DNA of 64,000 nucleotides, from the NCBI GenBank assembly GCA_014360685.1, contig JACIXB010000023.1:9825-73824 (forward strand), written 5' to 3'. Shown here in pieces: positions 1 through 38,125 of this stretch. The stretch is from Actinomycetota bacterium (GTDB lineage: Bacteria; Actinomycetota; Geothermincolia; Geothermincolales; RBG-13-55-18). A model generated the notes under the pieces. The model saw only the letters and a program-made list of their open reading frames with translations. It did no database searches and was not told where the DNA came from. How positions within the stretch are numbered: position 1 is the first letter of the stretch; the number at the start of each line of letters is the position of its first letter. A program made the position numbers and the translations under genes.

Positions 1-884
1 ATACATCCGCTCCGTGGAGAGGGGCCTCTACAACAAGCCCACCGTCCTCAACAACGTGGAGACCTGGGCCAACGTGCCCGAGATCATCCTCAAGGGAGCG
101 GAATGGTACGCGAGCATGGGCACCGAGGGCTCCAAGGGCACCAAGGTATTCTCCCTGGTGGGCAAGGTCAACAACACCGGCCTGGTGGAGGTGCCCATGG
201 GCATCTCCATACGCGAGCTGGTGGAGAACATAGGCGGGGGCATCCTGGGGGGCAAGAAGTTCAAGGCGGTGCAGACCGGCGGGCCCTCGGGGGAGCTGCA
301 TCCCGGAACGCCTGGCTGACCTGCCCATCGACTTCGACAGCCTCACCAAGGCCGGGTCCATGATGGGATCCGGCGGGATCATCGTCATGGACGAGGACAC
401 CTGCATGGTGGACGTGGCCAAGTACTTCACCGGGTTCCTGGTGGAGGAGTCCTGCGGAAAGTGCACCCCGTGTCGGGACGGCCTGCCGCGCATGCTGGAC
501 CTGCTCACGGAGATCACCGAGGGCCGGGGCAGTGAGGAGCACCTGGCCATGCTGGAGGAGCTGTGCGACCTGCTGACCTGGGGTGCGCTGTGCGGCTTGG
601 GGACCTCGGCCGCCAACCCGGTGCTCTCCACCATCAAGTACTTCCGGGAGGAATACGAGGCCCACATCAAGGACAAGAAGTGCCCGGCCGGGGTGTGCAA
701 GGCGCTGATCACCTATTCCATAGACCCGGAGGCGTGCACCGGCTGCCGCCTGTGCGCCAAGAACTGCCCGCAGAACTGCATCACGGGCAAGCGCAAGGAG
801 GCCCACGTGATCGATACGTCCAAGTGCATCAAGTGCGGCGTCTGCAAGGACGTGTACACCTTCGACGCGGTGAGGATCTCGTAG
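1..884 (+). pseudogene. NADH-binding FMN/[4Fe-4S] flavoprotein subunit (NuoF/HydB/HndC-like). The 5' end is cut by the window edge and the reading frame is broken once near 294.
   Basis: The frame from position 2 reads [29 protein letters not shown]...QTGGPSGE, then stops at 317..319. A second frame continues from 297 as [38 protein letters not shown]...ESCGKCTPCRDG, followed by two C-terminal CxxCxxCxxxCP motifs. Deleting the single 'a' at 294 restores the canonical GGPSGGCIP motif. Confidence 0.85.
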
Positions 885-26334: not shown

Positions 26335-27459
26335 ATGGCGGCCAAGAGGGTGGTCATCGTCGGGGCCGGCTTGGCCGGCCTGTGCGCGGCCATAACCGCA
26401 CGCAAGCTGGGCTACGAGGTTCATTGCGTGGACCGTTTCCAGCGGGTAGGCGGAATGCCCGAAGCCCATCCCTTCGTGGATTCCACCCCCTTCGACCCGG
26501 TGCTCATGTCCCGTTTCCTCGGCGTACCGATAGGCGAGCCGCAGGTGGGCCCTTGCGAGAATTTCCACGTCTACGCCTTCGGAAAGCTGTACCGCCTCGA
26601 CCCTTCTTTCTCGCGCCTGCACAACGTGGAACGCGGGCCCAGGAGGTCGGCCATCGACCGCTATCTCCATGATTTGGCGCTGGACATGGGGGTGACCTTC
26701 GAGTGGGGAAACCCGGTACTCGGCCGCAAGGACCTGGCCCAGTTCCCGCCGAACACCATCGTGGCCACCGGGCCCTACCCGGAGGTCTTCGAGGCCCTGC
26801 GTATCCCGCACGAGACGGCTTACGGATACGTGATGAGCGGGGTCTACCGTCCCTGGGGGGAAAGGTCCTACGCAAGGCGGTGCGCCGTGTATTTCGACCG
26901 CTATACCCGCGACTATTGTTATCTCCCTGCCGCCAACGGCATCGTGGCCGGGCTGTTCTTCGCCCGCCGCCCGGTGGGCGAGCGGCAGCGTGCCTTGTGG
27001 GAAAGGCAGATCAGGGAAACCGAGGGCGTGGAGTTCAAGACCTGGAGGTTGGAAAGGGGCTTTTTCGCCTCTCGCTATCCATGCCAGCCCCGGCTTTTCG
27101 CCGGGGACAAGATACTGGCCGGCACCCTGGCCGGGGCCCAGGACCCGGGTACCTACTTCGGGTGCCACGGGGCAATGGTCTCGGGCAAGATAGCCGCCAT
27201 CGCGTTGGAGGACAAGGCCTTGGCTCAGGAGATGTTCGACCTCTGCAACCGGAGCTTCAACGCCATGTGGTTCCTGCGCCGGGTGGCCATCAACTACATG
27301 CCGGAATTCCTCCGCAAGTCCTTGCTCAGCACCGTCCTGGGATTCGTCGCCAAATGGGAGATCCTGGGCAGGATGCAGGGAAGGAGCCTGCAGCGGATGA
27401 TTCCCGGCTGCCTGCTCCTGTTGCATATGGATAAATATTCCAAGTATCTGAATATTTAA
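26335..27459 (+). CDS. GGR-like FAD-dependent oxidoreductase, paralogue P2
   Basis: VVIVGAGLAGLCAAITARKLGYEV, ERGPRRSAIDRYLHDLALDMGVTFEW, and RLFAGDKILAGTLAGAQDPGTYFGCHGAMVSGKIAAIALED. An unusual AT-rich segment encodes the C-terminal tail. Confidence 0.8.
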   Translation: MAAKRVVIVGAGLAGLCAAITARKLGYEVHCVDRFQRVGGMPEAHPFVDSTPFDPVLMSRFLGVPIGEPQVGPCENFHVYAFGKLYRLDPSFSRLHNVERGPRRSAIDRYLHDLALDMGVTFEWGNPVLGRKDLAQFPPNTIVATGPYPEVFEALRIPHETAYGYVMSGVYRPWGERSYARRCAVYFDRYTRDYCYLPAANGIVAGLFFARRPVGERQRALWERQIRETEGVEFKTWRLERGFFASRYPCQPRLFAGDKILAGTLAGAQDPGTYFGCHGAMVSGKIAAIALEDKALAQEMFDLCNRSFNAMWFLRRVAINYMPEFLRKSLLSTVLGFVAKWEILGRMQGRSLQRMIPGCLLLLHMDKYSKYLNI

Positions 27460-27584
27460 ATACCTGGTTTCCGGGGCACGAGGTCTTCGCGCCCGTCTCT
27501 CCGGGTGGACGCGAATGGCTCTCGTTCCGCCGGTGATAGGAATGAACATGCAAGTCTTGGTGTAGGCTTGAAGGGGGATGGAAG

Positions 27585-28682
27585 GTGAAAGACAAAGGAC
27601 CCATCTACGTGGTGGGGGCGGGACTCGCGGGGCTTACCGCGGCCATCAACCTGGCCCGGCAGGGCAGGGAGGTTGTGGTCCTGGAGAAGGGGAAACGGGT
27701 CGGCGGGCTGGCCGTCTATAACCCCTCCCCGCACGGTACCCCCATGGATGCCGAGGCCATGTCCGGATACACGGGCATAGACCTGCTTCCGGCCATGGTT
27801 CCCCTGAAGGAAGGTGTGATCTCCATATGGGGGAAGAGGTACCGACAAAAGTTTCCCCGCAACGTGCAGGCCTGGATGATCGAAAGAGGGCCGCGAAAAT
27901 CGTCCATGGACCATTACCTTTATCGACTGGCGTTGGAGGAAGGGGTACGCTTCGAGTTCGACCAGCCCGTGGCGAGCGACCGACAGATCAACGAGTTGCC
28001 CCGCAATTCCATCCTCGCCACCGGCCTGCACGTGGACGGCTTCGAAGCCGCCAACGTCCCTTACCAGATCCTGCACGGCTATTTCGCCAAGTGCCGGGTT
28101 CCCTGGAAAGAAGCCCGGGTGACCATGTACTTCGACGACTACACGCCGGATTACGCCTTCACCTGTTCGGTTAACGGTATAGCCTTCGCCCTCATCTTCA
28201 ACCGCTACCGCCCGGTTGCCAGGTGGGAGATGGAGAAGTTCGCCGAGCAGGCGGTGGTCGAAGACGGGTATCCCTTCAGGAGATTCCAGGTCCTGGAAGG
28301 AGGTGCGGCCCCGGTTCGCCGTTTCACCAACCCCCGGCTTTTCCAAGGGGACATGATACTGGCCGGCACGGTGGCCGGGATGATGGACCCTGTCCTCTTC
28401 TTCGGGATGCACGGCGCCTTCCTCTCCGGGAAGATAGCGGCGCGGGCGGTGAACGATCCCGCCGGAGCTTATGACGAGTTCCGCCGGTTGAACGTGACCT
28501 TTTACCCGCTGCTGGCCGCCAAGCGCCTATTGGATATAAGCCCCCGTGACCTGGCCATAAAATATCCGGCCCGCCTTGCCATGCGTCTCATGCCCCTTTT
28601 TGGCCCCCTGCTCATGCGCCAGGCCTTCAAGGTGAACGTGACCGGATACGGCCGGTTAAAGGGGTCAGGTCTTGAATTTTGA
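27585..28682 (+). CDS. GGR-like FAD-dependent oxidoreductase, paralogue P3. The last 5 codons and the stop lie inside the MITE-like element.
   Basis: IYVVGAGLAGLTAAINLARQGREVVVLE..VGG, ERGPRKSSMDHYLYRLALEEGVRFEF, and RLFQGDMILAGTVAGMMDPVLFFGMHGAFLSGKIAARAVND. Confidence 0.8.
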   Translation: MKDKGPIYVVGAGLAGLTAAINLARQGREVVVLEKGKRVGGLAVYNPSPHGTPMDAEAMSGYTGIDLLPAMVPLKEGVISIWGKRYRQKFPRNVQAWMIERGPRKSSMDHYLYRLALEEGVRFEFDQPVASDRQINELPRNSILATGLHVDGFEAANVPYQILHGYFAKCRVPWKEARVTMYFDDYTPDYAFTCSVNGIAFALIFNRYRPVARWEMEKFAEQAVVEDGYPFRRFQVLEGGAAPVRRFTNPRLFQGDMILAGTVAGMMDPVLFFGMHGAFLSGKIAARAVNDPAGAYDEFRRLNVTFYPLLAAKRLLDISPRDLAIKYPARLAMRLMPLFGPLLMRQAFKVNVTGYGRLKGSGLEF

Positions 28683-28769
28683 TACATCCGAGTACCGAAA
28701 AAATCGATGTCCGATTCCTCCCTTCTCGAAAGGACACAAGGCATCCCGGTATCAAAATCCAAGACCTGA
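28665..28769 (+). mobile_element. MITE-like palindromic element, copy 1 (105 bp, 21-bp TIRs)
   Basis: Left TIR tcaggtcttgaattttgatac (28665..28685). Right TIR gtatcaaaatccaagacctga (28749..28769). The two are reverse complements with 1 mismatch. A homologous copy lies at 35379..35485. Confidence 0.7.
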
Positions 28770-28830
28770 TCTCATGTCTCCTGGACGATCGGTATCCCGT
28801 CGCCCGCACCTTGTCCGTCGCCTGCTTCCC

Positions 28831-29334
28831 TCAGGCCCCGCCGCATTCCCGCATGACCCGGCGGGCGAAGGCCCTGGCCTTCTCCAGGCGGGACTCGTCC
28901 GGTTGGCCCTTGGTGTGCGGACCGTACTCGGCGAACTGGCGGTGCCGCGGGTTGTCGCTCTTGGCCAGGAGCTCGATTATCGACTGGGCGAGTTCCCCCT
29001 GGCAGTCGAACATGCCCACCAGGTCGGCCTCGCACAGGCAGGCCCTGCAGTTTTCCAGGTACCGCCTCGTTTCCTCCTGGTCCTCGGGGGCGGCATGGGT
29101 GACGAAAACGGCGATCTTCTTTCCCTTGCCTTTTTCTTCCAGGAAAGCCTTGGCCTCCGCCGCCGGGTTGGAGGCGTGGATGGGGAAGCCTATGAAGGCC
29201 AGGTCGTATCCCTCCAGGCTCTCCACTTCCGAGAGGGGCTTGATCTCCTTTTCCGCCTCCAGCTGATCATAGATGGCTTCCGCCACCCGCTTGGTGTTTC
29301 CGGTCTGGGACAGGTAGGCTACCAGGATCTTCAT
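28831..29334 (-). CDS. Flavodoxin-family protein
   Basis: MKILVAYLSQTGNTKRVAEAIYDQL FMN-binding N-terminus. ggaggt RBS 6 nt before the ATG at 29334. Confidence 0.8.
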   Translation of the reverse strand: MKILVAYLSQTGNTKRVAEAIYDQLEAEKEIKPLSEVESLEGYDLAFIGFPIHASNPAAEAKAFLEEKGKGKKIAVFVTHAAPEDQEETRRYLENCRACLCEADLVGMFDCQGELAQSIIELLAKSDNPRHRQFAEYGPHTKGQPDESRLEKARAFARRVMRECGGA

Positions 29335-29742
29335 GGCCACACCTCCGGAAGTTGAATCTTTGCGCCCGTCTTTTGACCGGCGCCCGCCCACATGAGGAAT
29401 TGTAACAGAAAGGGAGAAATCACACCGACGTGGAGGGCGGGACCTACCGCGCCCTCGACTTCACGGGAGTGGCCGGTATGTTCGGGCACCCCTTCTTTTC
29501 CCCCCGGCGGGGAACGGCTCCTGTACACCCGGCGTCCTTGGGTCCCTACGGCGAAAGACTTGGTCACGGGTTGAAAGCGGCGGTCACCGGGGAAAACAGG
29601 CCGTGGAAGTGGCCGTGTGCACCAACAAGCGCCTGGAAAGCCCCCTGGTGATCATGAGGAAGGGGCCTCGGGGCTGGGAAGGGGCGGATATGGGCACGTG
29701 CATAGATCCGCCGTCATGGCACCCACCCTTACTGGATTGGAT

Positions 29743-31236
29743 TCACTTAATACCGCACAGGTGGAGCGCCGATTCCAGGGCCTCGGAGCGGTGTGGCTGG
29801 GTGCGCGAGAACTCCAGGAGGCTCATCTTGCAGGCCTGCCCGGAACCTCCCCCATGGGTGGCGGAATGGAGGATGGATCCCAATCCCCAGGAGATGTTCT
29901 CTATCAGCCGGACCATGCGCAGGCGGTGTTCCGCGGGCACGTCGTCCACGCCCTTCAGGAACCGTTCCATCCAGTGGGAGATCTCCGGGTTCTTCATCTC
30001 CTTCTCCCCGGGGCAGCAGGACAGGATGCCGCCGGTGATATCCTCGGCCAGGCGTATGAGGTCGAAGACGGCCCGCGAGGCGTAATACTTCGTGTTGTTG
30101 GCCAGCACCGGGTCGGCCACGTAACCCGCTCCCGGGAGCTGGAAACCGCGCATGGCGGCGGCAAGCCCGCAGGAATACATGGTCTCGGAGATGGCTACCA
30201 TGTCCGCCAGCTTATCCTGCACGTGGGCCGACCTCTCCAGCCCGTTGTAGCGGGCCATGAGTTGGGTGGCGGCGATGAGAACGTCAGCCCATCCCGATTT
30301 GCATCCCCCGGTGGTGGGGCGATGGGAGGTGCCGAAGAGGTTCACCAGTTCCCCCAGGTACTCCACTTCCCCGCAGAGAAAGACCCTTTCCCAAGGCACG
30401 AAGACATCATCGAAGATCACGATGCATTCATGCACCCCGTAGTAAATATTTCCCAGGTCCATCTCCGCTCCTTCCTTCCTGCGGTCGTCCTGGGACTGCC
30501 GCACGGAGATGTGGACCAGACCGGGGGCATCGGCCGGCACGGCACAGGCCACGGCGTAGTCCTCGGCGCCGGCGCGGTGGGTGGTGCAGGGAAGGACCAG
30601 CTTTTCGTGGGAGAATGCGGCTCCCGTCTGGTGCAGCTTGGCCCCGCGGATCACGATTCCCTCCCGGTTCCTGTCCACGACCCTGAGGTACATGTCCGGG
30701 TCGGGTTGTTCCTGGGCGGGGATCTTCCTCCCTCCCTTGGGATCGGTTATGGCCGGGCAGGCCAGAAGATCGTTGCGCTGCATGTAGATTATCCATTCGC
30801 GCAAGCGCGAGTGGTAGGACGTCCCCTTCTCCAAATCGATCTTTCGGGTGATGTACAGCAGGGGGGCATAGGCGTTCTGGATGCAGCGGAAGGAACATAT
30901 CCCCAACCTGCGGTTCATGTAGCGCGTGATGTTCACCTTGGCCACCAGCTGGTCCACGCTCTGCGGGACGTGTTGGAAGAAGGAAACGGGCTCCCCGGTG
31001 AGATGGGATTCAACCGTCAGGCGGTCGGCGAGCTCCGGCTCGTGGACCATGTCGTAGGTGGCGGCCACGGCGTGGGCAGCCGCCCGCACCGCGGGGTGCT
31101 CCAGGGCGTTGTCCAGCCGCCTCCCGTCGATGTAGATGGGGATGGACATTTCCTCGATGCTCTTCAGGTATTCGGCCCCGGTCTTCAATTCCTCCTCCCT
31201 CCCAAGGTTTTCCTTCTTCTTGCTGACGGCGTGCAA
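29743..31236 (-). CDS. abfD: 4-hydroxybutyryl-CoA dehydratase / vinylacetyl-CoA isomerase-like protein (AbfD/HpaB family)
   Basis: ITDPKGGRK..DPDMYLRVVDRNREGIVIRGAKLHQTGA is conserved. The cluster-ligand pattern CSFRC (C-x3-C) plus HRPTTGGC (H-x6-C) matches the clostridial enzyme. The C-terminus ...GIK also matches. The start may be a TTG at 31188. Confidence 0.75.
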   Translation of the reverse strand: MHAVSKKKENLGREEELKTGAEYLKSIEEMSIPIYIDGRRLDNALEHPAVRAAAHAVAATYDMVHEPELADRLTVESHLTGEPVSFFQHVPQSVDQLVAKVNITRYMNRRLGICSFRCIQNAYAPLLYITRKIDLEKGTSYHSRLREWIIYMQRNDLLACPAITDPKGGRKIPAQEQPDPDMYLRVVDRNREGIVIRGAKLHQTGAAFSHEKLVLPCTTHRAGAEDYAVACAVPADAPGLVHISVRQSQDDRRKEGAEMDLGNIYYGVHECIVIFDDVFVPWERVFLCGEVEYLGELVNLFGTSHRPTTGGCKSGWADVLIAATQLMARYNGLERSAHVQDKLADMVAISETMYSCGLAAAMRGFQLPGAGYVADPVLANNTKYYASRAVFDLIRLAEDITGGILSCCPGEKEMKNPEISHWMERFLKGVDDVPAEHRLRMVRLIENISWGLGSILHSATHGGGSGQACKMSLLEFSRTQPHRSEALESALHLCGIK

Positions 31237-31303
31237 CGGCGTCGGTGAGTTCGTCGAAAACGACTACCGGGCCGCGAAAAAAACCACGGCCACGATAAAG
31301 TGA

Positions 31304-31978
31304 TCATCGTGAGCGAACCCCTCCCGGACTTCCGGGCCCATTGGTCCGCGCCTTATCGCCCTCGGGCGAGTTTCCCGGAACGCGCCTTTTCCCGGGGGTG
31401 CGGCTGTTGTCCTCCCGTTTCCGGCACCCCTCCAGGACCAGGCCGGAGAAGACCTCGGCGATCTCCCCGGTGGAGCGCTCTCCGGCCGGGTCGTACCAGG
31501 AGGAGAGCCAGTTGCACATCCCGGAAACGGCCCGGGCCACCATGGGTACGTCCATCTCACGGAAGGAACCCTCCCGCATGCCTTCCTCCAGGACGCCCCG
31601 GAGCACGGTCTCGTATTCCCGGCTCAATGCGCGCACCTTTCTCCTCCGACGCGGGGGGAGCTCGCCCTCGTCGGCCAGGTAAACGTTGGTGATGTCGCCG
31701 TGCCTTGCGAACATGTCCAGGTGCAGCGCGATGAGGCGGCGCAGTTTCTCCTCAGCGGGGAGAGGAGAACTCTCGATCTCCCGCGCCCCGTCGAGCAGCT
31801 CCGTCACCGCCGATTCGCAGATGGCGTAGAGCAGGTCGTACTTGGAATCGATGTAGTGGTAGAGGGCCGGCTTGGTGATCCTCAGCCGGCGGGCGATTTC
31901 CTCCAGGGAGGTCCTCCGAAAGCCTTTCTCCCGAAAAAGCCGGGCGGCAACGGCTCGGATTTCCTCTTGGCGGGTCAC
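31304..31978 (-). CDS. TetR/AcrR-family transcriptional regulator
   Basis: N-terminal HTH FRRTSLEEIARRLRITKPALYHYIDSKYDLL. GTG start with ggagg upstream. Confidence 0.85.
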   Translation of the reverse strand: MTRQEEIRAVAARLFREKGFRRTSLEEIARRLRITKPALYHYIDSKYDLLYAICESAVTELLDGAREIESSPLPAEEKLRRLIALHLDMFARHGDITNVYLADEGELPPRRRRKVRALSREYETVLRGVLEEGMREGSFREMDVPMVARAVSGMCNWLSSWYDPAGERSTGEIAEVFSGLVLEGCRKREDNSRTPGKRRVPGNSPEGDKARTNGPGSPGGVRSR

Positions 31979-32002
31979 TTTCCCGAACCTCCAAACTAAT
32001 AT

Positions 32003-32054
32003 CTTACTTACCAGTAGGTAAGCCGATTGTAAAACGATTTATCTCCATAGTCAA
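32003..32054 (-). promoter_or_regulatory. Promoter (TTGACT-17-TACAAT, minus strand) followed immediately by a 20-bp palindromic operator candidate
   Basis: On the minus strand, ttgact is at 32054..32049 and tacaat at 32031..32026. The palindrome cttacttacc|agtaggtaag at 32003..32022 has 8/10 arm matches. It starts 3 nt after the -10 box and lies 25 nt before the TetR GTG. Confidence 0.6.
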
Positions 32055-32436
32055 GCATGCTCGGAGTTTTTGATTGACGATAACCGCTTCGGCCGCGAGT
32101 GGAATGATCATGGCCGCGGGAAGAATAAGAGCGACCCCGGGGCCCTTTCCTCCTTACCGGGTTGCTCAGAGGCCAGGCCAGGCCGTGGAGAAGTGTTTGG
32201 TTGCCAGATGGGGGAGGCCGGAGGCTGGGAACTGATGACCGTCAAGGCGGCGGGATACGGAAAAAGGGAAAATGGTCCTTGATAGAGGAGATATAAAGTG
32301 ATGCCGGTCCGAGGAGGCACGGTTCCGGGGAGTGACGATCGTGGAACCACGGGCGGACGGTTTACCGAGAATGTAAGAACGTTCGTGCCGTGCCGCCGGT
32401 AAATAAGGCTGATGTCACCGGGTAGGAGGTCAAGGC

Positions 32437-33477
32437 TTGGGCGGGTTGGAAGACACGAGGAAGCCCGAGGCGGAAGGCGCGGAACCCCGGCTGGGAAGAA
32501 GGGAATTCCTGGAAAAGCTTGGGATGGGCCTTGTGGGGCTGGGAGGGCTTTACGCAGCCATGGCACTTCCCGGTTGCGGGGGCGGAAGCCCGGGCACCTG
32601 CCCTACGGAAGGGGGCACGGCTGCGGAGGCGGGTGATATACCAGCCCCCGCAGAGGGAGCGGGGATCTACCGGGGGCTGGTGGTGGCGGAGGGTAAGGAC
32701 CCCCGGACGACGCTCAGGTTGGGCTTGCACGAGTGGGGCGGCCTGGAAGCCCTGGAACCGACGGGCAAGAAAGTGCTCCTCAAGGTGAACGCCGCGTTCG
32801 CGCGGTCTCCGGAGGACGCCGCCACCACCCACCCGGACCTGGTCTCGGAGGCGGTGCGCCTTTTCCTTTCGGCGGGAGCGTCCGAGGTGGTGGTATACGA
32901 CCACATCCTGCAGGACCTCGTGGAGCCCACCCTGGAAAAAAACGGTATAGGACCGGCGGCGAGGGAGGCGGGGGCGAGGCTTGCCGTTTACGCAGTGAAA
33001 AAACCCGGTCCTTCCCGGATCGTCCAGGTTCCAGGAGGAAAGGCTCTTTCCTCCATAGGCATACTGGAGGAGGTCTTCCAAGCCGACATAATCGTCAACA
33101 TGCCCAAGGCCAAGCACCACAGCGGAGCGGGACTCACCCTGGCCATGAAGAACCTCATCGGCTGCACCCAGAACATGGGTAGGATGCACGACGTGGACCT
33201 GCACCGCGCCATCGCCGAGCTCAATGCCCTTATCCGCCCCTCCTTGATAATACTTGACGCCACCAGCGTATTGTTGGATAACGGCCCCGGTGGGCCGGGA
33301 ACCGTCGCCCGTCCGCAAAAGATAATCCTGGGCACAGACCCGGTGGCCGTGGACGCCTACGCCTGCGGCCTCTTCGACAGGTCGCCCAAGAAGATCCGCT
33401 ATCTCTCCCACGGGGAGGAACTGGGGGTGGGCACCATCGATTACCACTCCCTGGGCGTGAAGGAGGTAGAGGCTTGA
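32437..33477 (+). CDS. DUF362-domain protein with Tat signal and lipobox (predicted exported lipoprotein)
   Basis: GRREFLEKLGMGLVGLGGLYAAMALPGCGG (twin-arginine plus LPGC). The core KVLLKVNAAFARSPEDAATTHPDLVSEAVRLFLSAGASEVVVYD is typical of DUF362. TTG start with aggagg 7 nt upstream. Confidence 0.7.
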   Translation: MGGLEDTRKPEAEGAEPRLGRREFLEKLGMGLVGLGGLYAAMALPGCGGGSPGTCPTEGGTAAEAGDIPAPAEGAGIYRGLVVAEGKDPRTTLRLGLHEWGGLEALEPTGKKVLLKVNAAFARSPEDAATTHPDLVSEAVRLFLSAGASEVVVYDHILQDLVEPTLEKNGIGPAAREAGARLAVYAVKKPGPSRIVQVPGGKALSSIGILEEVFQADIIVNMPKAKHHSGAGLTLAMKNLIGCTQNMGRMHDVDLHRAIAELNALIRPSLIILDATSVLLDNGPGGPGTVARPQKIILGTDPVAVDAYACGLFDRSPKKIRYLSHGEELGVGTIDYHSLGVKEVEA

Positions 33478-33677
33478 CCTTTTTGCTTGGGGATAAGCGG
33501 CGGGGCACGGGCTGGGCCTCGTGCGTAGTCAACGCCCGGATGATAGGTGGAGCATGGATGACGCTCTCGAGAGAATGGCCTCCTGGAGCCGGTCTGCGAA
33601 GGGTGTCCGGAAACTTTTAGGCGTCCCGATACGGGCGGGGCCCCGTCGAGAAAACAAGAAAGGTCAGTGGAAGAAAA

Positions 33678-34661
33678 ATGGGCGACAGGCGCGCGGGAAA
33701 TAAGAAACGACGCGCTCTCTCCTGGATCCGGAAGGCGGTTCAGGCCGTTTTCCTGTCCCTCTTCGTGATCCTGGCCTGGTCAGCCTCCTATCCCCCAGGG
33801 GCCTTGAACGAGAACCTCTTCCTGCGCCTCGATCCCCTGGCCGCCTTCGTGGCCGCCTCCTGGAGCGGGCTGTGGGTTTACCTTCTCCCCGCCTGGCTCC
33901 TGCTCCTGGCCACAGCCTTCAGCGGGCGGTTCTTCTGCGGCTGGGTTTGCCCCCTGGGCACGGTATTGGAATGGGTGCCCTCCCGGCGCGGAAGGCGGCG
34001 GAGGAGGAAATTCTCGGAACTGCGGGTAGTGGACTTGACCGGAAAGGAGATAGGGGAGGGGGAGAGGAGGGTCCGATTAAAGTACGCCTTCCTGGTCCTA
34101 TTCATCGCCCTTTCTTTGGCGGGCGTCAACCTGGCTTGGGCCTACGACCCATTGGTCATCGCCAACCGGACCCTGGCCTTCCTCTTCTCCGGCGGTATCC
34201 CGTTTCTCTTCCTGGTGCTGCTCCTCCTGGCGGTCATCGCCGGCCCCCGCTTCTGGTGCCGGGAGATGTGCCCGCTGGGAGCCTGCCTGTCCCTCACCGG
34301 CATGCTCGGATCCAGGCTTCCCGCGGATGCCAGCCCGCTCTCCCTGGTCAAGGAGGAAGAATCGTGCATCCACTGCGGGAGGTGTTCCCTGGCATGTCCT
34401 TTCGAGATAACCGAGGTGGCTGACTCGCGGCATACTGGCAGGCTGGCCATCCCGGACTGCGCTCTGTGCGGGGAATGCGTTGCTTCCTGCCCGTGCGAGG
34501 GCGCCCTGTCCCTGCGCTCCTTCGGGCTCGTCCTCTCCTCGTCCGGGACGAGGAAGGGCGGAGACACGGCGATCCGGGACGCGGGGAAGGAGGAAGGCAA
34601 TGTCATTACCCATCCGCGGCGGATGAGAGACGGAAGTCCCGGCTCGGGGGTGGCCCCGTAA
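33678..34661 (+). CDS. NapH/MauN-family polytopic membrane Fe-S protein
   Basis: FCGWVCPLGT and FWCREMCPLGA membrane CxxxCP motifs between hydrophobic helices. C-terminal CIHCGRCSLACP and CALCGECVASCP. Confidence 0.75.
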   Translation: MGDRRAGNKKRRALSWIRKAVQAVFLSLFVILAWSASYPPGALNENLFLRLDPLAAFVAASWSGLWVYLLPAWLLLLATAFSGRFFCGWVCPLGTVLEWVPSRRGRRRRRKFSELRVVDLTGKEIGEGERRVRLKYAFLVLFIALSLAGVNLAWAYDPLVIANRTLAFLFSGGIPFLFLVLLLLAVIAGPRFWCREMCPLGACLSLTGMLGSRLPADASPLSLVKEEESCIHCGRCSLACPFEITEVADSRHTGRLAIPDCALCGECVASCPCEGALSLRSFGLVLSSSGTRKGGDTAIRDAGKEEGNVITHPRRMRDGSPGSGVAP

Positions 34662-34804
34662 CCGGTTCCATGATTAGGAAGATTTTACCTCATGGGTCAC
34701 GGCGGCAGGCGACGGGGAAAGCGGTGGGGGAACGCGCGGTCAGGGACTGTGCGGCCCCCAAAGGCACTCGATCTTACCCGGCGCATAGAGGAGGTCTTGG
34801 AGAA

Positions 34805-35389
34805 ATGTGGAAGCTGAGGTTGGCGCGGCGGGAGTTCCTGGCCTGGAGCCTTGCCGGGGCGGCCACCGCCATCACCTACGGGCTGTGGCCACGTGATTCT
34901 GGCGCTTCGCCGCTGCTCAGGCCCCCGGGAGCGCAGGACGAGGAGGATTTCGTGTCCCGCTGCCTGCGCTGCCAGGAATGCGTGCGCGCCTGCATGACCG
35001 GGTGCCTGGAACCGGCGGGAAGGGAATTCGGGGCGGGCAAGATCTGGACCCCCCGTTTCAATCCTTCACTGGCCAAGTGCGAGTTCGAGCTCTGCGGCCG
35101 GGCCTGCGCCCGCGCCTGCCCCGTGGGGGCCATCCGTCGTCCGGGAGACGAGGAGGTGCGCATCGGGACAGCGTCCGTGGACAGGAAGAAGTGCATCGCC
35201 TGGAACGAGGGCAAGGACTGCCTGGTCTGCTACGAGCGCTGTTCCTACGGGGCCATCGAGCCCGATTCCAGGGGCAGACCCCGTGTGAAGTCCAAACGGT
35301 GTACGGGTTGCGGAGCCTGCCAGAACACCTGCGTGACCTGCCCCGACCCGGCCATCGTGGTCTATCCGATAAAAGGGGACAGGTCTTGA
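34805..35389 (+). CDS. Tat-exported poly-[4Fe-4S] ferredoxin (NapG/MauM-like). The last 3 codons and the stop lie inside the MITE-like element.
   Basis: MWKLRLARREFLAWSLAGAATA twin-arginine signal. Four Cys clusters: CLRCQECVRAC, CGRACARACP, CLVCYERC and CTGCGACQNTC. ATG at 34805 has gaggagg upstream. The longer ORF from 34466 overlaps the NapH-like gene. Confidence 0.75.
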   Translation: MWKLRLARREFLAWSLAGAATAITYGLWPRDSGASPLLRPPGAQDEEDFVSRCLRCQECVRACMTGCLEPAGREFGAGKIWTPRFNPSLAKCEFELCGRACARACPVGAIRRPGDEEVRIGTASVDRKKCIAWNEGKDCLVCYERCSYGAIEPDSRGRPRVKSKRCTGCGACQNTCVTCPDPAIVVYPIKGDRS

Positions 35390-35485
35390 ATTTTGATACA
35401 CCCGAGTGCCGAGTCGTTTAAACCGGGTGCCTTGCCCTTGACGATTTGGATACATGACATCCGAGTATCAAAATTCAAGACCTGA
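35379..35485 (+). mobile_element. MITE-like palindromic element, copy 2 (107 bp, perfect 20-bp TIRs)
   Basis: caggtcttgaattttgatac (35380..35399) and gtatcaaaattcaagacctg (35465..35484) are perfect reverse complements. Subterminal ...acccgagtgccga and catccgagtatc match copy 1. Confidence 0.7.
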
Positions 35486-35573
35486 TCCTTAGATTAGGCA
35501 TCCCGCTCCGGAATTGGTGGTAAAATGTTCTCGGCCCGTTTCCGGCCGCCACCACGGCGAGGAAAGGAGCACC

Positions 35574-36707
35574 ATGGATGCGCGCATGACGGTCGAGGAA
35601 TGCCTGGAGATGTGGAGGAATCCCTACCCCCGCCTGGCCCGCATGCGGGAGGAAGGGGAAAGGCCGGTGGCCTTCTTCTGTTCCTATACCCCGGAGGAGA
35701 TACTCCACGCCGCCGGTTTTACGCCGGTGCGGCTCATGGGTGCCGTGCGCACCATAACCCATGCCGACGCTCACCTCCAAGCCTATTGCTGCTCCCTGGC
35801 CCGCACCGACCTGGACATGGCCCTGGCGGGAGAGCTTGATTTCCTGGAAGGAGCGGTTTTCGTGCAGACCTGCGATACCATGATGCGCCTCTCGGACATC
35901 TGGCGTCGCAACACCTCCTTTCCCTTCCACGGGGACCTGGTCTTACCCATCCGCATGGGCGAGGAGATCTCCCTCCCCTTCCTGGTGGAAGAGGTGCGCC
36001 GCTTCCGGGGAAGGGTGGAAGAGTACCTGGGGCGGAGCATCCGGGACGATGCCCTGGAAGAAAGCATCCACGTGTACAACCGCAACCGGCGGATGGCGGA
36101 CAGGCTTTATCTGCTGCGCCGGGAGAGGCCGGGAGCCCTGGACGGCCTTTCAGCCACCGCCTGCCTGGTTGCCGGTTTCTGGATGAGGCGCGAAAAGCAC
36201 AACGATCTTCTGCACCATATTTTGGAAGAAGCCGAGGCCGGGAAGGAGAAAGCCGCGGAGAAGCTGCCCCTGCTGGTCAGCGGGAGCGTCTGCGCCACCC
36301 CCGACCTTTACGAGCTTTTAGCCGAGCTGGATGCCGAGGTGGTTGACGACGACCTCTGTTGCGGTCACCGCTATTTCGACGCCTTTGCCGACGAGAACAT
36401 CTCACCGGAGGAGGCACTGGCCCGGCGCTTGTGGCAACGGGTCAACTGTCCGGCCAAACACCAGTGCCTGGAGGACCGGGCGGAGCGCCTCCTGAGGCAA
36501 GTGGGGGACAGCGGAGCGAAAGGTGTGGTGTTCTTCCTGCAATCCTTCTGCGAACCGCACCTCTTCGACATCCCCTACCTGAGGAACCGCCTGCGGGAAG
36601 AGCTTGGCATACCCTCTCTGGTTTTGGAGAGCGAGCTGCAATCCTTCTCCCGCGGGCAGCTCCGGACCAGGCTGCAGGCCTTCCTGGAGACCATCCGCGG
36701 GGTGTGA
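35574..36707 (+). CDS. 2-hydroxyacyl-CoA dehydratase / benzoyl-CoA reductase BcrC/BadD/HgdB-family subunit
   Basis: VAFFCSYTPEEILHAAGFTPVRLMG N-terminus and C-terminal VVFFLQSFCEPHLFD, typical of the HGD-D family. aaggag RBS. Confidence 0.75.
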   Translation: MDARMTVEECLEMWRNPYPRLARMREEGERPVAFFCSYTPEEILHAAGFTPVRLMGAVRTITHADAHLQAYCCSLARTDLDMALAGELDFLEGAVFVQTCDTMMRLSDIWRRNTSFPFHGDLVLPIRMGEEISLPFLVEEVRRFRGRVEEYLGRSIRDDALEESIHVYNRNRRMADRLYLLRRERPGALDGLSATACLVAGFWMRREKHNDLLHHILEEAEAGKEKAAEKLPLLVSGSVCATPDLYELLAELDAEVVDDDLCCGHRYFDAFADENISPEEALARRLWQRVNCPAKHQCLEDRAERLLRQVGDSGAKGVVFFLQSFCEPHLFDIPYLRNRLREELGIPSLVLESELQSFSRGQLRTRLQAFLETIRGV

Positions 36708-36889
36708 GCGGCGATGCCCGATCAGGTGGCATGGGAAGGGGCGAGTGGCCGGAAGAGGCCCGGAATGGACGCGCCGGAAGCGTGGCATGGGTCGGGGAGC
36801 AAGGCGCGCGATGGAAGGGGTTTGATCTGGAAATAAATGCTAAATATTTCAATACCGCATAAACGTGATCGGGCGAAGGAGGTTCGGGG

Positions 36890-38125
36890 ATGAGCTCCGG
36901 CGAGAATCGCGACGAGGAGAGGGAAGCAAAGGAAAGGCGACGCATCAAGTCCGGGGAAGCCATGCGCGACCTGATGACCAAGTACTACATGGAGGCCAAG
37001 GCCGCCGAGGGGACGGACAAGCACATCGCCTGGATCACCAGCGGGGGGCCGGTGGAGCCGCTCATCGCCTTCGACGTCATCCCCGTGTACCCCGAGAACC
37101 ACGGCGCCATGTGCGGGGCCGCCCACATGAACGTGGAGCTCTGCGAGGTGGCGGAATCCCGCGGCTTCTCGCGGGACCTGTGTTCCTATGCCCGCGGAGA
37201 CATAGGGAGCGCCATCACCAAGGGCGGACCCATCGGAGGACTGCCACGGCCCACTTTCCTGGTGTGCTGCAACAACATCTGCAACACGGTGTTCAAATGG
37301 TACGAGGAGCTCGCGCGCTTCTTCGACGTCCCCCTGTTCATCTTCGATACCCCCTTCGTGAGGGGAGGACTGCCCTCCCATCACCTGGATTACACCCGCC
37401 GCCAGATGGAGGAATACATATCTTTTCTGGAAAGGATTACCAGCCGGGAATACGACGAGGCACACTTCGTGGAGGTGGCGGCCAAGTCCCTCTACGCCTC
37501 CGGCCTGTGGGCGGAGGTGCTGGCCTGCAACCAAGCCCGGCCGGCCCCCATGACCTGCTTCGACGCCTTCATCCTCATGGCCCCCATCGTCACCCTGCGC
37601 GGGACCCAGGAGGTGGTGGACTTCTACCAGGGCTTGCTCCAGGAGATGAGGGACCGCGTCGAGCAGGGCATCGGCATCCTTCCTTCCGAAAAGTATCGCC
37701 TGCTGTGGGACAACATCCCGGTGTGGTACGAGATGCGTAACCTGGGTCGGCTTTTCATGGAACTGGAAGCCTGCCTGGTAGCGGACACCTACACCAGCGC
37801 CTGGACCTTCCAGGAAGTGGACACCGAGGACCCGCTGGAGGCCATGGCCGCCATCTACACCGAGGTATACCTGAACATCAACCTGGAGCGCATGGCGGAC
37901 AAGATAGAGTCCCTGGCCCGCCGCTACGAGGTGGACGGCATGGTAATGCATTCCAACCGCAGCTGCAAGCCCTATTCACTGGGCCAGTACGACCTGGCCA
38001 AGGAGTTCACCCGGCGCACCGGAAAGCCGACCCTGATTATCGAGGCCGACCATACCGACTCGCGCTGGTACAACCGTGCCGAGGTGGAAGGGCGCATCAG
38101 GGACTTCGTGGAAAACCTCCTTTAA
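36890..38125 (+). CDS. 2-hydroxyacyl-CoA dehydratase-family subunit (HgdA/BcrB-like partner)
   Basis: HIAWITSGGPVEPLIAFDVIPVYPENHGAMCGA.., LCSYAR, and C-terminal DGMVMHSNRSCKPYSLGQYD. gaaggagg RBS. Confidence 0.75.
   Translation: MSSGENRDEEREAKERRRIKSGEAMRDLMTKYYMEAKAAEGTDKHIAWITSGGPVEPLIAFDVIPVYPENHGAMCGAAHMNVELCEVAESRGFSRDLCSYARGDIGSAITKGGPIGGLPRPTFLVCCNNICNTVFKWYEELARFFDVPLFIFDTPFVRGGLPSHHLDYTRRQMEEYISFLERITSREYDEAHFVEVAAKSLYASGLWAEVLACNQARPAPMTCFDAFILMAPIVTLRGTQEVVDFYQGLLQEMRDRVEQGIGILPSEKYRLLWDNIPVWYEMRNLGRLFMELEACLVADTYTSAWTFQEVDTEDPLEAMAAIYTEVYLNINLERMADKIESLARRYEVDGMVMHSNRSCKPYSLGQYDLAKEFTRRTGKPTLIIEADHTDSRWYNRAEVEGRIRDFVENLL

Follow-up and report, generated by a model that had tools for sequence, protein, structure and literature searches.

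A gene-less inverted-repeat element at the stop codon of an Actinomycetota flavoprotein gene is probably a REPIN-like doublet of TIRYT/RAYT-type transposase ends

What kind of sequence lies across the 3' end of a flavoprotein gene in a 64,000-nt stretch of an Actinomycetota genome, and how did it come to be there? The stretch (contig JACIXB010000023.1 of assembly GCA_014360685.1; C16:9825-73824 in our numbering, hereafter the window) carries, at the end of a gene that we call P3, a short non-coding element with inverted termini. The original prediction described it as similar to a miniature inverted-repeat transposable element (MITE), inserted into a pre-existing gene end and not recognized as a named repeat family. 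We give a probability of roughly 0.85 to the reading that the P3 element is a non-autonomous, gene-less, REPIN-like doublet, in which the two terminal inverted repeats (TIRs) of a TIRYT/RAYT-type Y1 (HUH) transposase unit enclose an unrelated short core, and that its autonomous partner lies on another contig, C24, of the same genome. This assignment comes from sequence comparison. The source genome, G000, comprises 2.61 Mb in 30 contigs, with ~63% G+C and an estimated completeness of 80%.

A repeat search of the window recovered exactly the structure first described for the element, namely 21-nt arms at 28665-28685 and 28749-28769, 95% complementary with one mismatch, and 63 nt apart. With up to three mismatches, the 21-mer is found at four sites in the window, compared with 0.00 expected from 100 shuffles. 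The two remaining sites (35379-35399 and 35465-35485) are the arms of a second, homologous copy, which had likewise been predicted and which is 75% identical to the P3 element. Comparison with all copies added 4 nt to the outer side of each arm (left, GGGG; right, in reverse complement, GAGA), giving arms of 25 nt and a full element of 113 bp at 28661-28773. The left arm is identical to both arms bracketing the transposase gene on C24, and the right arm departs from the arm consensus at three positions. Alignment revealed no similarity between the core and the interior of the C24 transposase unit. Folding of either strand gives a long hairpin, with energies of -42.9 and -52.1 kcal/mol (z -4.7 and -5.4), that none of 200 shuffles equalled; z-scores for the doublets range from -4.7 to -7.9 (-4.7, -5.4, -7.9). 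An E-value scan of window positions 27000-37000 matched no Rfam family.

The element is tied to a class of mobile units by a transposase gene with matching TIRs, which the original prediction had proposed to seek and which does exist on C24. Inward-facing arms at C24:49113(+) and C24:50360(-), 1.25 kb apart, bracket one open reading frame (ORF), C24:49311-50159 (282 aa), and these flanking termini are perfect inverted repeats of 25 nt. The encoded protein matches Pfam Y1_Tnp (E 7e-14) and NCBIfam NF047646, 'REP-associated tyrosine transposase', where REP stands for repetitive extragenic palindrome (93.6 bits, cut-off 80; the 146-position model covers residues 8-141). The HUH motif (NHYHLL) and the tyrosine of RYVVLNPVRAG are invariant in 11 aligned orthologues. 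A profile of the orthologues matched Escherichia coli TnpA-REP (PDB 4ER8) weakly over the tyrosine-containing stretch (E 0.056), and a phmmer search of PDB with the C24 protein gave no match. Homologues in a large protein collection are named 'REP element-mobilizing transposase RayT' and carry precomputed assignments to HTH_38, HTH_23 or Sigma70_r4 (PF13936, PF13384 or PF04545). The C24 gene was the only gene bracketed by the TIRs that we found in G000.

RAYT-like genes flanked by TIRs have been termed TIRYTs, and the unit that such a gene forms with its TIRs a TIRtron, with the common motif GGGGWSAS (Di Nocera, De Gregorio & Rocco 2013, PMC3733652). The TIR families are moderately abundant and occur as singles, dimers or clusters (PMC3733652). 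Most TIRYTs belong to TnpA-Y1 subclass 2.1 and have Bac_DnaA_C or helix-turn-helix (HTH) C-terminal domains; no REP-like repeats were found adjacent to genes of this subclass (Quentin et al. 2018, PMC6006769). The start of our arm, GGGGTCAG, conforms to the published TIRYT motif GGGGWSAS (PMC3733652, PMC6006769). The repeat family, which the original prediction did not recognize as a named one, does have a published name, the arms being TIRtron TIRs with this motif. The P3 element is therefore placed as a further example of a type already described but hardly investigated, the TIRtron TIR dimer, and in function it would be the counterpart of a REPIN. A literature search for the box sequence itself (the first 14 nt of the arm) returned unrelated primer matches only, and we found no report of TIRYT or TIRtron mobility in the literature searched by name.

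A second TIRYT-type gene is present in G000 at C29:22411-23581 (locus L032 1309-2509). It encodes 348 aa, with a match to Y1_Tnp (E 6.6e-10) and a weak match to Bac_DnaA_C (E 0.005), and is bracketed by its own inverted repeat, GGGGTCAGTCCCTTTCCCTGTC, which has 35 copies in G000, most of them arranged in direct tandem pairs that repeat every 36 nt. Because this gene has a separate repeat family, G000 holds two TIRtron systems.

The TIR is dispersed throughout the genome. At up to four mismatches the 21-mer has 37 sites in G000, and an nhmmer arm model detected 42 arms at E<=0.1, for a total estimate of about 42-45. These comprise ~26 single arms, six inverted doublets and a few direct pairs. 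The arm is a non-palindromic 25-mer headed by GGGGTCAG; most singlets consist of an A/T-rich flank, GGGGTCAGGTCTTGAATTTTG, and then directly a small hairpin, ATACCC-N4-GGGTAT, with a constant stem and a highly variable loop. This short 3' palindrome is found in singlets only, and the arms of the P3 element are without it. Three doublets, namely the P3 element, the second copy in the window and C6:5595-5708, form a subfamily with a common subterminal core (left ATCCGAGTACCGAAAAA, right GGATACATGACATCCGAG), as seen in an alignment of the three. The P3 element is the most diverged member (75% identity to the window copy, 78% to C6:5595-5708). It has the left subterminal sequence, as well as a degraded right one, GGAYACA..CATCC.G, in common with the other two G000 doublets and with a tandem pair in the related genome G001. 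Because the subterminal core is common to the three doublets and the G001 tandem pair, the doublet appears to have been copied whole, together with its core. Each of the remaining three G000 doublets (C8:102721-102850, C18:20206-20303 and C19:6388-6513) has a unique core.

Two further observations concern the surroundings of arms in G000. Four tandem units of ~36 nt, GAGGGTTTACGCGCCTCCTCGCCATGACGTTTTAA, occupy C6 ~126400-126600 in the left flank of the arm at C6:126695-126734. Sequences resembling tRNAs lie within ~30-250 nt of three arm sites (C8:102850, C18:20303 and C7:8541); examples are GGCCGGCGTAGCTCAGCAGGT after the C8 doublet and GGGCCGCTAGCTCAGTTGGCAGAGC downstream of C7:8502.

How the element came to lie at the end of P3 can be read from the gene end and its orthologues. 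The element sits between the convergent P3 and flavodoxin genes, as first described, and the flavodoxin stop is 57 nt past the right arm. The P3 ORF enters the left arm and stops at TGA 28680-28682, the second TGA within the arm. Its tail, ACC GGA TAC GGC CGG TTA AAG GGG TCA GGT CTT GAA TTT TGA, reads ...TGYGRLKGSGLEF*, and the motif noted as PG[FYC] in the paralogues reads TGY in P3. From the left arm come the TGA stop, the six complete codons before it (GSGLEF) and, ahead of these, the third base of the K codon. The orthologues in three genomes of the same genus (G001, G002 and G003; GCA_015711855.1 is a congener record) end at ...GGA TAT GGC CGG TTC TGA (GYGRF*), ...GGT TAC GGG AGG ATT TAA (GYGRI*) and ...GGA TAC GGA AGG ATT TGA (GYGRI*), respectively. 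Relative to them, codons 28659-28679 (KGSGLEF) and the stop 28680-28682 are new in P3. The frame does run into the element as the original prediction had it, which gave the element the last five codons (SGLEF); the tail added relative to the orthologues has seven residues. The native stop, at ~28659, no longer lies in frame; the junction (gTTAAAg) retains a TAA, and because this TAA is out of frame the P3 ORF runs on, 21 nt into the arm, to the second in-arm TGA.

The element is absent from this locus in all three congeners. The P3 and flavodoxin stops are separated by ~7 nt in G002 and ~24 nt in G003, where the element would not fit, and the gap in G001 is an unrelated 295 nt. Because the G002 and G003 orthologues end in ...GYGRI* at empty sites, we infer that the element was inserted at the P3 stop codon, adding KGSGLEF, which bears out its description as an insertion into an existing gene end.

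Coordinates of the P3 element and associated features in the window
Feature	Position	Strand	Evidence or remarks
Left arm (TIR)	28661..28685	+	GGGGTCAGGTCTTGAATTTTGATAC; nhmmer arm model E 3.8e-08, among best matches
Core, non-coding, 63 nt	28686..28748	.	left subterminal part ATCCGAGTACCGAAAAA; middle diverged
Right arm (TIR), inverted	28749..28773	-	minus-strand reading GAGATCAGGTCTTGGATTTTGATAC; nhmmer E 4.7e-05
Second doublet, same subfamily, 115 bp	35375..35489	+	arm matches, alignment
P3, 365-aa FAD/NAD(P)-binding flavoprotein gene	27585..28682	+	Pfam NAD_binding_8 and Amino_oxidase N-terminal matches
Flavodoxin gene, convergent with P3	28831..29391	-	Pfam Flavodoxin_3 E 5.5e-26; gene context

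The second doublet in the window shows a similar arrangement. The ORF of a NapG-like ferredoxin (34466-35389) extends into the left arm of this doublet, where the first TGA ends it (...VVYPIKGDRS*). The orthologous site has two tandem doublets in G001 and none in G002, where the tail of the NapG-like ferredoxin differs and is longer. On a single G002 contig, the genes that flank both window doublets lie ~3.7 kb apart, compared with 6.2 kb in the window, with neither doublet present; because of this shorter distance, the gene content of the interval differs in G002. The two window doublets (28661-35489) were also considered as the ends of a composite transposon, which is unlikely: the P3 copy is absent from all three congeners and the second copy is common with G001.

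Variation in arm content extends beyond this locus. The numbers of 23-mer arm matches in the same-genus genomes are 51 (G001), 30 and 23. When 40 G001 arm sites were compared with G000, ~15 were shared and several were cleanly empty in G000. The doublet at L178, for example, occupies 136 nt in G001 compared with a 6-nt gap in G000; G000 also lacks the G001 singlets L160 and L172, and neither G001 nor G003 has the G000 singlets C9:203933 and C3:324728. These differences suggest that arm copies have been recently gained and lost in this genus. Both empty sites and target-site duplications had been proposed as checks: the empty sites are present in congeners, but no consistent duplication accompanies the insertions. 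Flanking direct repeats were not found at five of the six G000 doublets, the sole exception being C19:6388-6513 with identical 5-nt flanks (CTTTG). Imperfect 6-nt GTGAAA copies flank L178 in G001, and imperfect cases total two.

The position of arms relative to gene ends was compared with a null model in which intergenic positions and strands were drawn at random 2000 times, using crude gene calls (ORFs >=80 aa, GC3 >= 0.72, GC2 <= 0.57). At 11 of the 42 G000 arms, a stop codon on the same strand has its end 1-4 nt ahead of the GGGG, where the null model gives 0.24 such arms on average and at most 3, and at nine further arms an ORF ends at an in-arm TGA (+12..14 or +19..21). Altogether, a same-strand gene stop lies 1-4 nt before or inside the arm at 20/42 arms in G000 and 31/47 in G001. 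Position -2 is A at 31/42 arms despite a genome of 63% G+C, and both arms of C6:5595-5708 abut the stops of convergent genes. Because empty sites carry the native stop at the identical position, the stop belongs to the gene and not to the element. These results suggest that insertion is biased to gene stop codons and rewrites C-termini, as in P3 and the NapG-like ferredoxin. We tentatively attribute the stop adjacency to target preference together with selection against insertions within genes. It is conceivable, though less likely than not, that TIRYT-type elements choose gene 3' ends with near-nucleotide precision, 0-1 nt past a native TAA or TGA and with their GGGG terminus towards the stop. 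They would then act as modular gene-end cassettes, each bringing a 3' hairpin, a short C-terminal tail and reserve stop codons in two frames. We know of no HUH transposon with such a stop-codon target rule. At one orthologous site, immediately past the TAA of the same gene, a family-1 arm follows ...GAATAAA| in G001 (L158, arm at 599+) and arms of an unrelated TIR family, family 2, follow ...GAATAAT| in G000 (C23:3869-3906); either both TIR families target one spot, or ends were swapped at the common GGGGTCAG.

The pairing of arm and transposase gene is preserved among relatives. Orthologues of the C24 gene in the three congeners are 84, 76 and 75% identical, each between inward arms, and the TIR-flanked arrangement was found in G001, G002, G003 and seven other relatives. 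Genus g7 and other genera of the same family have genes that are 57-62% identical, with a variant arm, GGGGTCAGGTCTTGTTTTTTGCATAC-N4-GTATGC, in which the 14-nt head is retained and the spacer and hairpin stem differ. The C24-type gene has one and the same neighbour in several genera, a molybdopterin-oxidoreductase gene whose 3' end it adjoins, and this suggests vertical inheritance of the transposase locus. The 23-mer was absent from all 17 genomes searched that represent further families of this order and class. G012, from another genus of the same family, has 20 arm copies (e.g. C45:6082-7746), of which 15 match the G000 23-mer exactly. The C24 protein finds its best homologue in G012 at only 37% identity, encoded at the edge of a contig; either the cognate gene is unassembled in G012, or the repeat was horizontally acquired.

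At greater distances, the end of the arm itself is recognizable. A protein-alignment scan of species-representative genomes yielded at least ~600 loci, of which the best 80 were taken as a distant-locus set. The box, GGGGTCAGGTCTTG, was found with <=2 mismatches, inverted beside the homologous genes, at 75 of these best 80 loci, which belong to Syntrophales, Nitrospirota, Acidobacteriota, Gammaproteobacteria, Bipolaricaulota, the Candidate Phyla Radiation (CPR) and others. Among the matches listed, the closest named homologues are from metagenome-assembled genomes of Syntrophales, Deltaproteobacteria and Nitrospirae, at <=50% identity. Nearly invariant at either end of the unit, the box typically lies ~45 nt before the start codon and its inverted copy 25-50 nt past the stop, and some loci of this set (L061-L140) have 2-6 tandem box copies at one end, e.g. 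L133, L081 and L123. In 27/69 upstream arms, compared with 0/53 downstream arms, TAnnnT occurs exactly 17 nt downstream of the box TTG, so that the box TTG corresponds to a -35 hexamer, and the ATG follows ~6 nt past the -10. This spacing implies a leaderless transposase mRNA starting within the left end, and suggests that the conserved 14-nt box is both the recognition end and the source of the -35 of the transposase promoter. In the genus of the window, the arm is ~200 nt from the transposase gene. A role for singlets as mobile promoters (TTGAAT-N17-TATATN) was considered and downgraded; most G000 singlets are without T at the last -10 position.

The original prediction also raised the possibility of a bidirectional terminator between P3 and the flavodoxin gene. 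A promoter and terminator scan found no U-tract terminator on either strand in 28300-29100 and no promoter in the element, and the sequence following either arm is without a T run. Because the U-tract is missing, the terminator idea is unsupported by the sequence. A role of the 3' hairpin at the ends of the P3 and flavodoxin mRNAs, as an exonuclease barrier or an obstacle to terminating ribosomes, is plausible by analogy with MITEs (PMC3733652) and REPs.

Several observations weigh against a REPIN-like doublet mobilized by the C24 enzyme. The doublet cores are unlike the interior of the transposase unit, only the arms matching, and for this reason the doublets are not simple deletion derivatives of the C24 unit. 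The subfamily has only three doublets in G000, where singlets predominate and are also gained and lost, so the doublet may not be the main mobile form. The C-terminal 100 residues of the C24 protein match HTH models weakly (Sigma70_r4, HTH_38, HTH_3; E 0.03-0.1). The G001 orthologue (C43:35506-36185, locus L043) is split by two in-frame stops (one TGA, one TAA), yet G001 has the most arms (51). The P3 junction is also unclean, reading CGGTTAAAGGGG in G000 where relatives have AGGATTTGA/TAA or CGGTTCTGA, and we must assume an extra small indel at or after insertion, or an assembly error.

The alternatives account for parts of this evidence. Small size, lack of coding capacity, TIRs of 21-25 bp and several copies would all be expected of a classical MITE, a deletion derivative of a DDE-type insertion sequence moving by cut-and-paste with target-site duplication, and the CTTTG flanks at C19:6388-6513 and the imperfect GTGAAA flanks at L178 in G001 could be taken as such duplications. 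However, the only TIR-bracketed gene of G000 encodes a Y1/HUH enzyme, the same pairing recurs at 75 of the best 80 distant loci, direct repeats flank only one of the six G000 doublets, and the cores are unrelated to the autonomous unit; we regard a classical MITE as very improbable. The MITE-like label of the original prediction is thus apt for a mobile, non-autonomous inverted-repeat element and inapt for its class, the enzyme being HUH/Y1 and not DDE. Alternatively, two solo arms might have inserted independently in opposite orientation into one gap between convergent genes, each by one gene end, without forming a mobile unit. Singlets far outnumber doublets, three doublets have unique cores, single arms favour gene stops and both arms at C6:5595-5708 do abut the stops of convergent genes, but the core ends are common to two other G000 doublets and the G001 tandem pair, so the doublet appears to have been copied whole with its core, and the arms of the P3 element are without the singlet ATACCC/GGGTAT hairpin. 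We therefore consider independent insertion improbable.

The arms could instead be host-serving 3'-end modules, either stabilizer or termination hairpins or sites bound by a domesticated transposase through its HTH domain, that are kept at stops by selection and whose mobility is historical. This explanation, which is compatible with a REPIN-like origin, would fit the frequency of stops at or in the arms (20/42 in G000, 31/47 in G001), the conserved stem and variable loop of singlets, the stable stem between convergent genes, and the vertical inheritance suggested by the shared molybdopterin-oxidoreductase neighbour. It fits poorly with presence that varies at orthologous sites among congeners, with genes that function without the element, and with the absence of a U-tract terminator and of an Rfam family, and we think it unlikely. 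A structured RNA or attenuator specific to the P3/flavodoxin locus would explain a strong hairpin between two redox genes, but it is refuted, and its probability is negligible: the element is absent at this locus in three congeners and present at dozens of unrelated loci, with no Rfam match. A motif found nowhere else and conserved in position among relatives, which would have pointed to such an RNA, is clearly not what we observed.

If the P3 element is a REPIN-like doublet, as we favor, the C24 enzyme would bind and cleave the arms, moving singlets and doublets in trans, with insertion preferring a position 0-1 nt past TAA or TGA. In the transcripts, an RNA stem of ~25 bp (-43 to -52 kcal/mol) would cap the 3' ends of both convergent mRNAs and may slow 3' exonucleases; because the stem begins within the last P3 codons, it may also hinder translation termination. 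TIRYT/TIRtron systems are among the least studied HUH transposase systems, and this genus offers a compact natural experiment, with a cognate gene that is intact in G000, G002 and G003 and broken in G001, 23 to 51 arms per genome, clear filled and empty orthologous sites, and two co-resident TIRYT genes with separate repeat families. For annotation, the arms account for odd short C-terminal tails (...KGSGLEF, ...KGDRS) and for broken assemblies around such genes. The parts most worth following are the stop-codon targeting and the cross-phylum 14-nt end.

The system resembles several known ones in different respects. Like the classical MITEs Correia/NEMIS, RUP and ERIC, the element is ~100 bp long and non-coding, has TIRs of 20-25 bp, lies at or in gene ends, forms a long hairpin, would be co-transcribed and can alter a C-terminus. 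Those elements are mobilized by DDE transposases and make target-site duplications (TA for Correia) (PMC3733652). Here, by contrast, the enzyme is Y1/HUH and no consistent duplication was found. The HUH/Y1 fold is shared with the IS200/IS605 family (IS608, ISDra2), and duplication-free insertion beside a short specific flank would match the A/T-rich flank seen here. Members of that family have subterminal hairpins, no terminal inverted repeats, and a TnpA without an HTH extension; in contrast, the C24 gene has perfect 25-nt inverted termini. Work attributed to Liang, Rudd and Deutscher reportedly showed in 2015 that E. coli REP hairpins a few nucleotides from stop codons can make ribosomes stall at termination and shield the 3' end of the mRNA. 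A stable repeat hairpin within a few nucleotides of a stop codon is common to both cases, whereas here the stop codon is often inside the repeat arm.

The REPIN-RAYT systems (Bertels & Rainey 2011, PMC3116915; Bertels et al. 2017, PMC5581495) likewise have one cognate HUH tyrosine-transposase gene that is repeat-flanked and apparently vertically inherited, and the C24 protein scores above the NCBIfam RAYT cut-off. However, our arm is not a GTAG- or CGTC-headed palindrome, the criterion for a REP being a palindrome of 20-40 bp; doublets are the minority form, copies number tens and not hundreds, and the enzyme has an extra C-terminal region. The resemblance to TIRtrons and TIRYTs includes a Y1/HUH gene of ~280 aa with a C-terminal extension, here only a candidate HTH, flanked by TIRs that are dispersed as singles, dimers and groups, and the differences are that singlets here have a small GC hairpin, that copies lie at stop codons and that congeners have empty sites. 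Because the cognate enzyme is HUH/Y1, of the TIRYT/RAYT type, and not DDE, 'REPIN-like TIR doublet' is a better name for the element at P3 than classical MITE.

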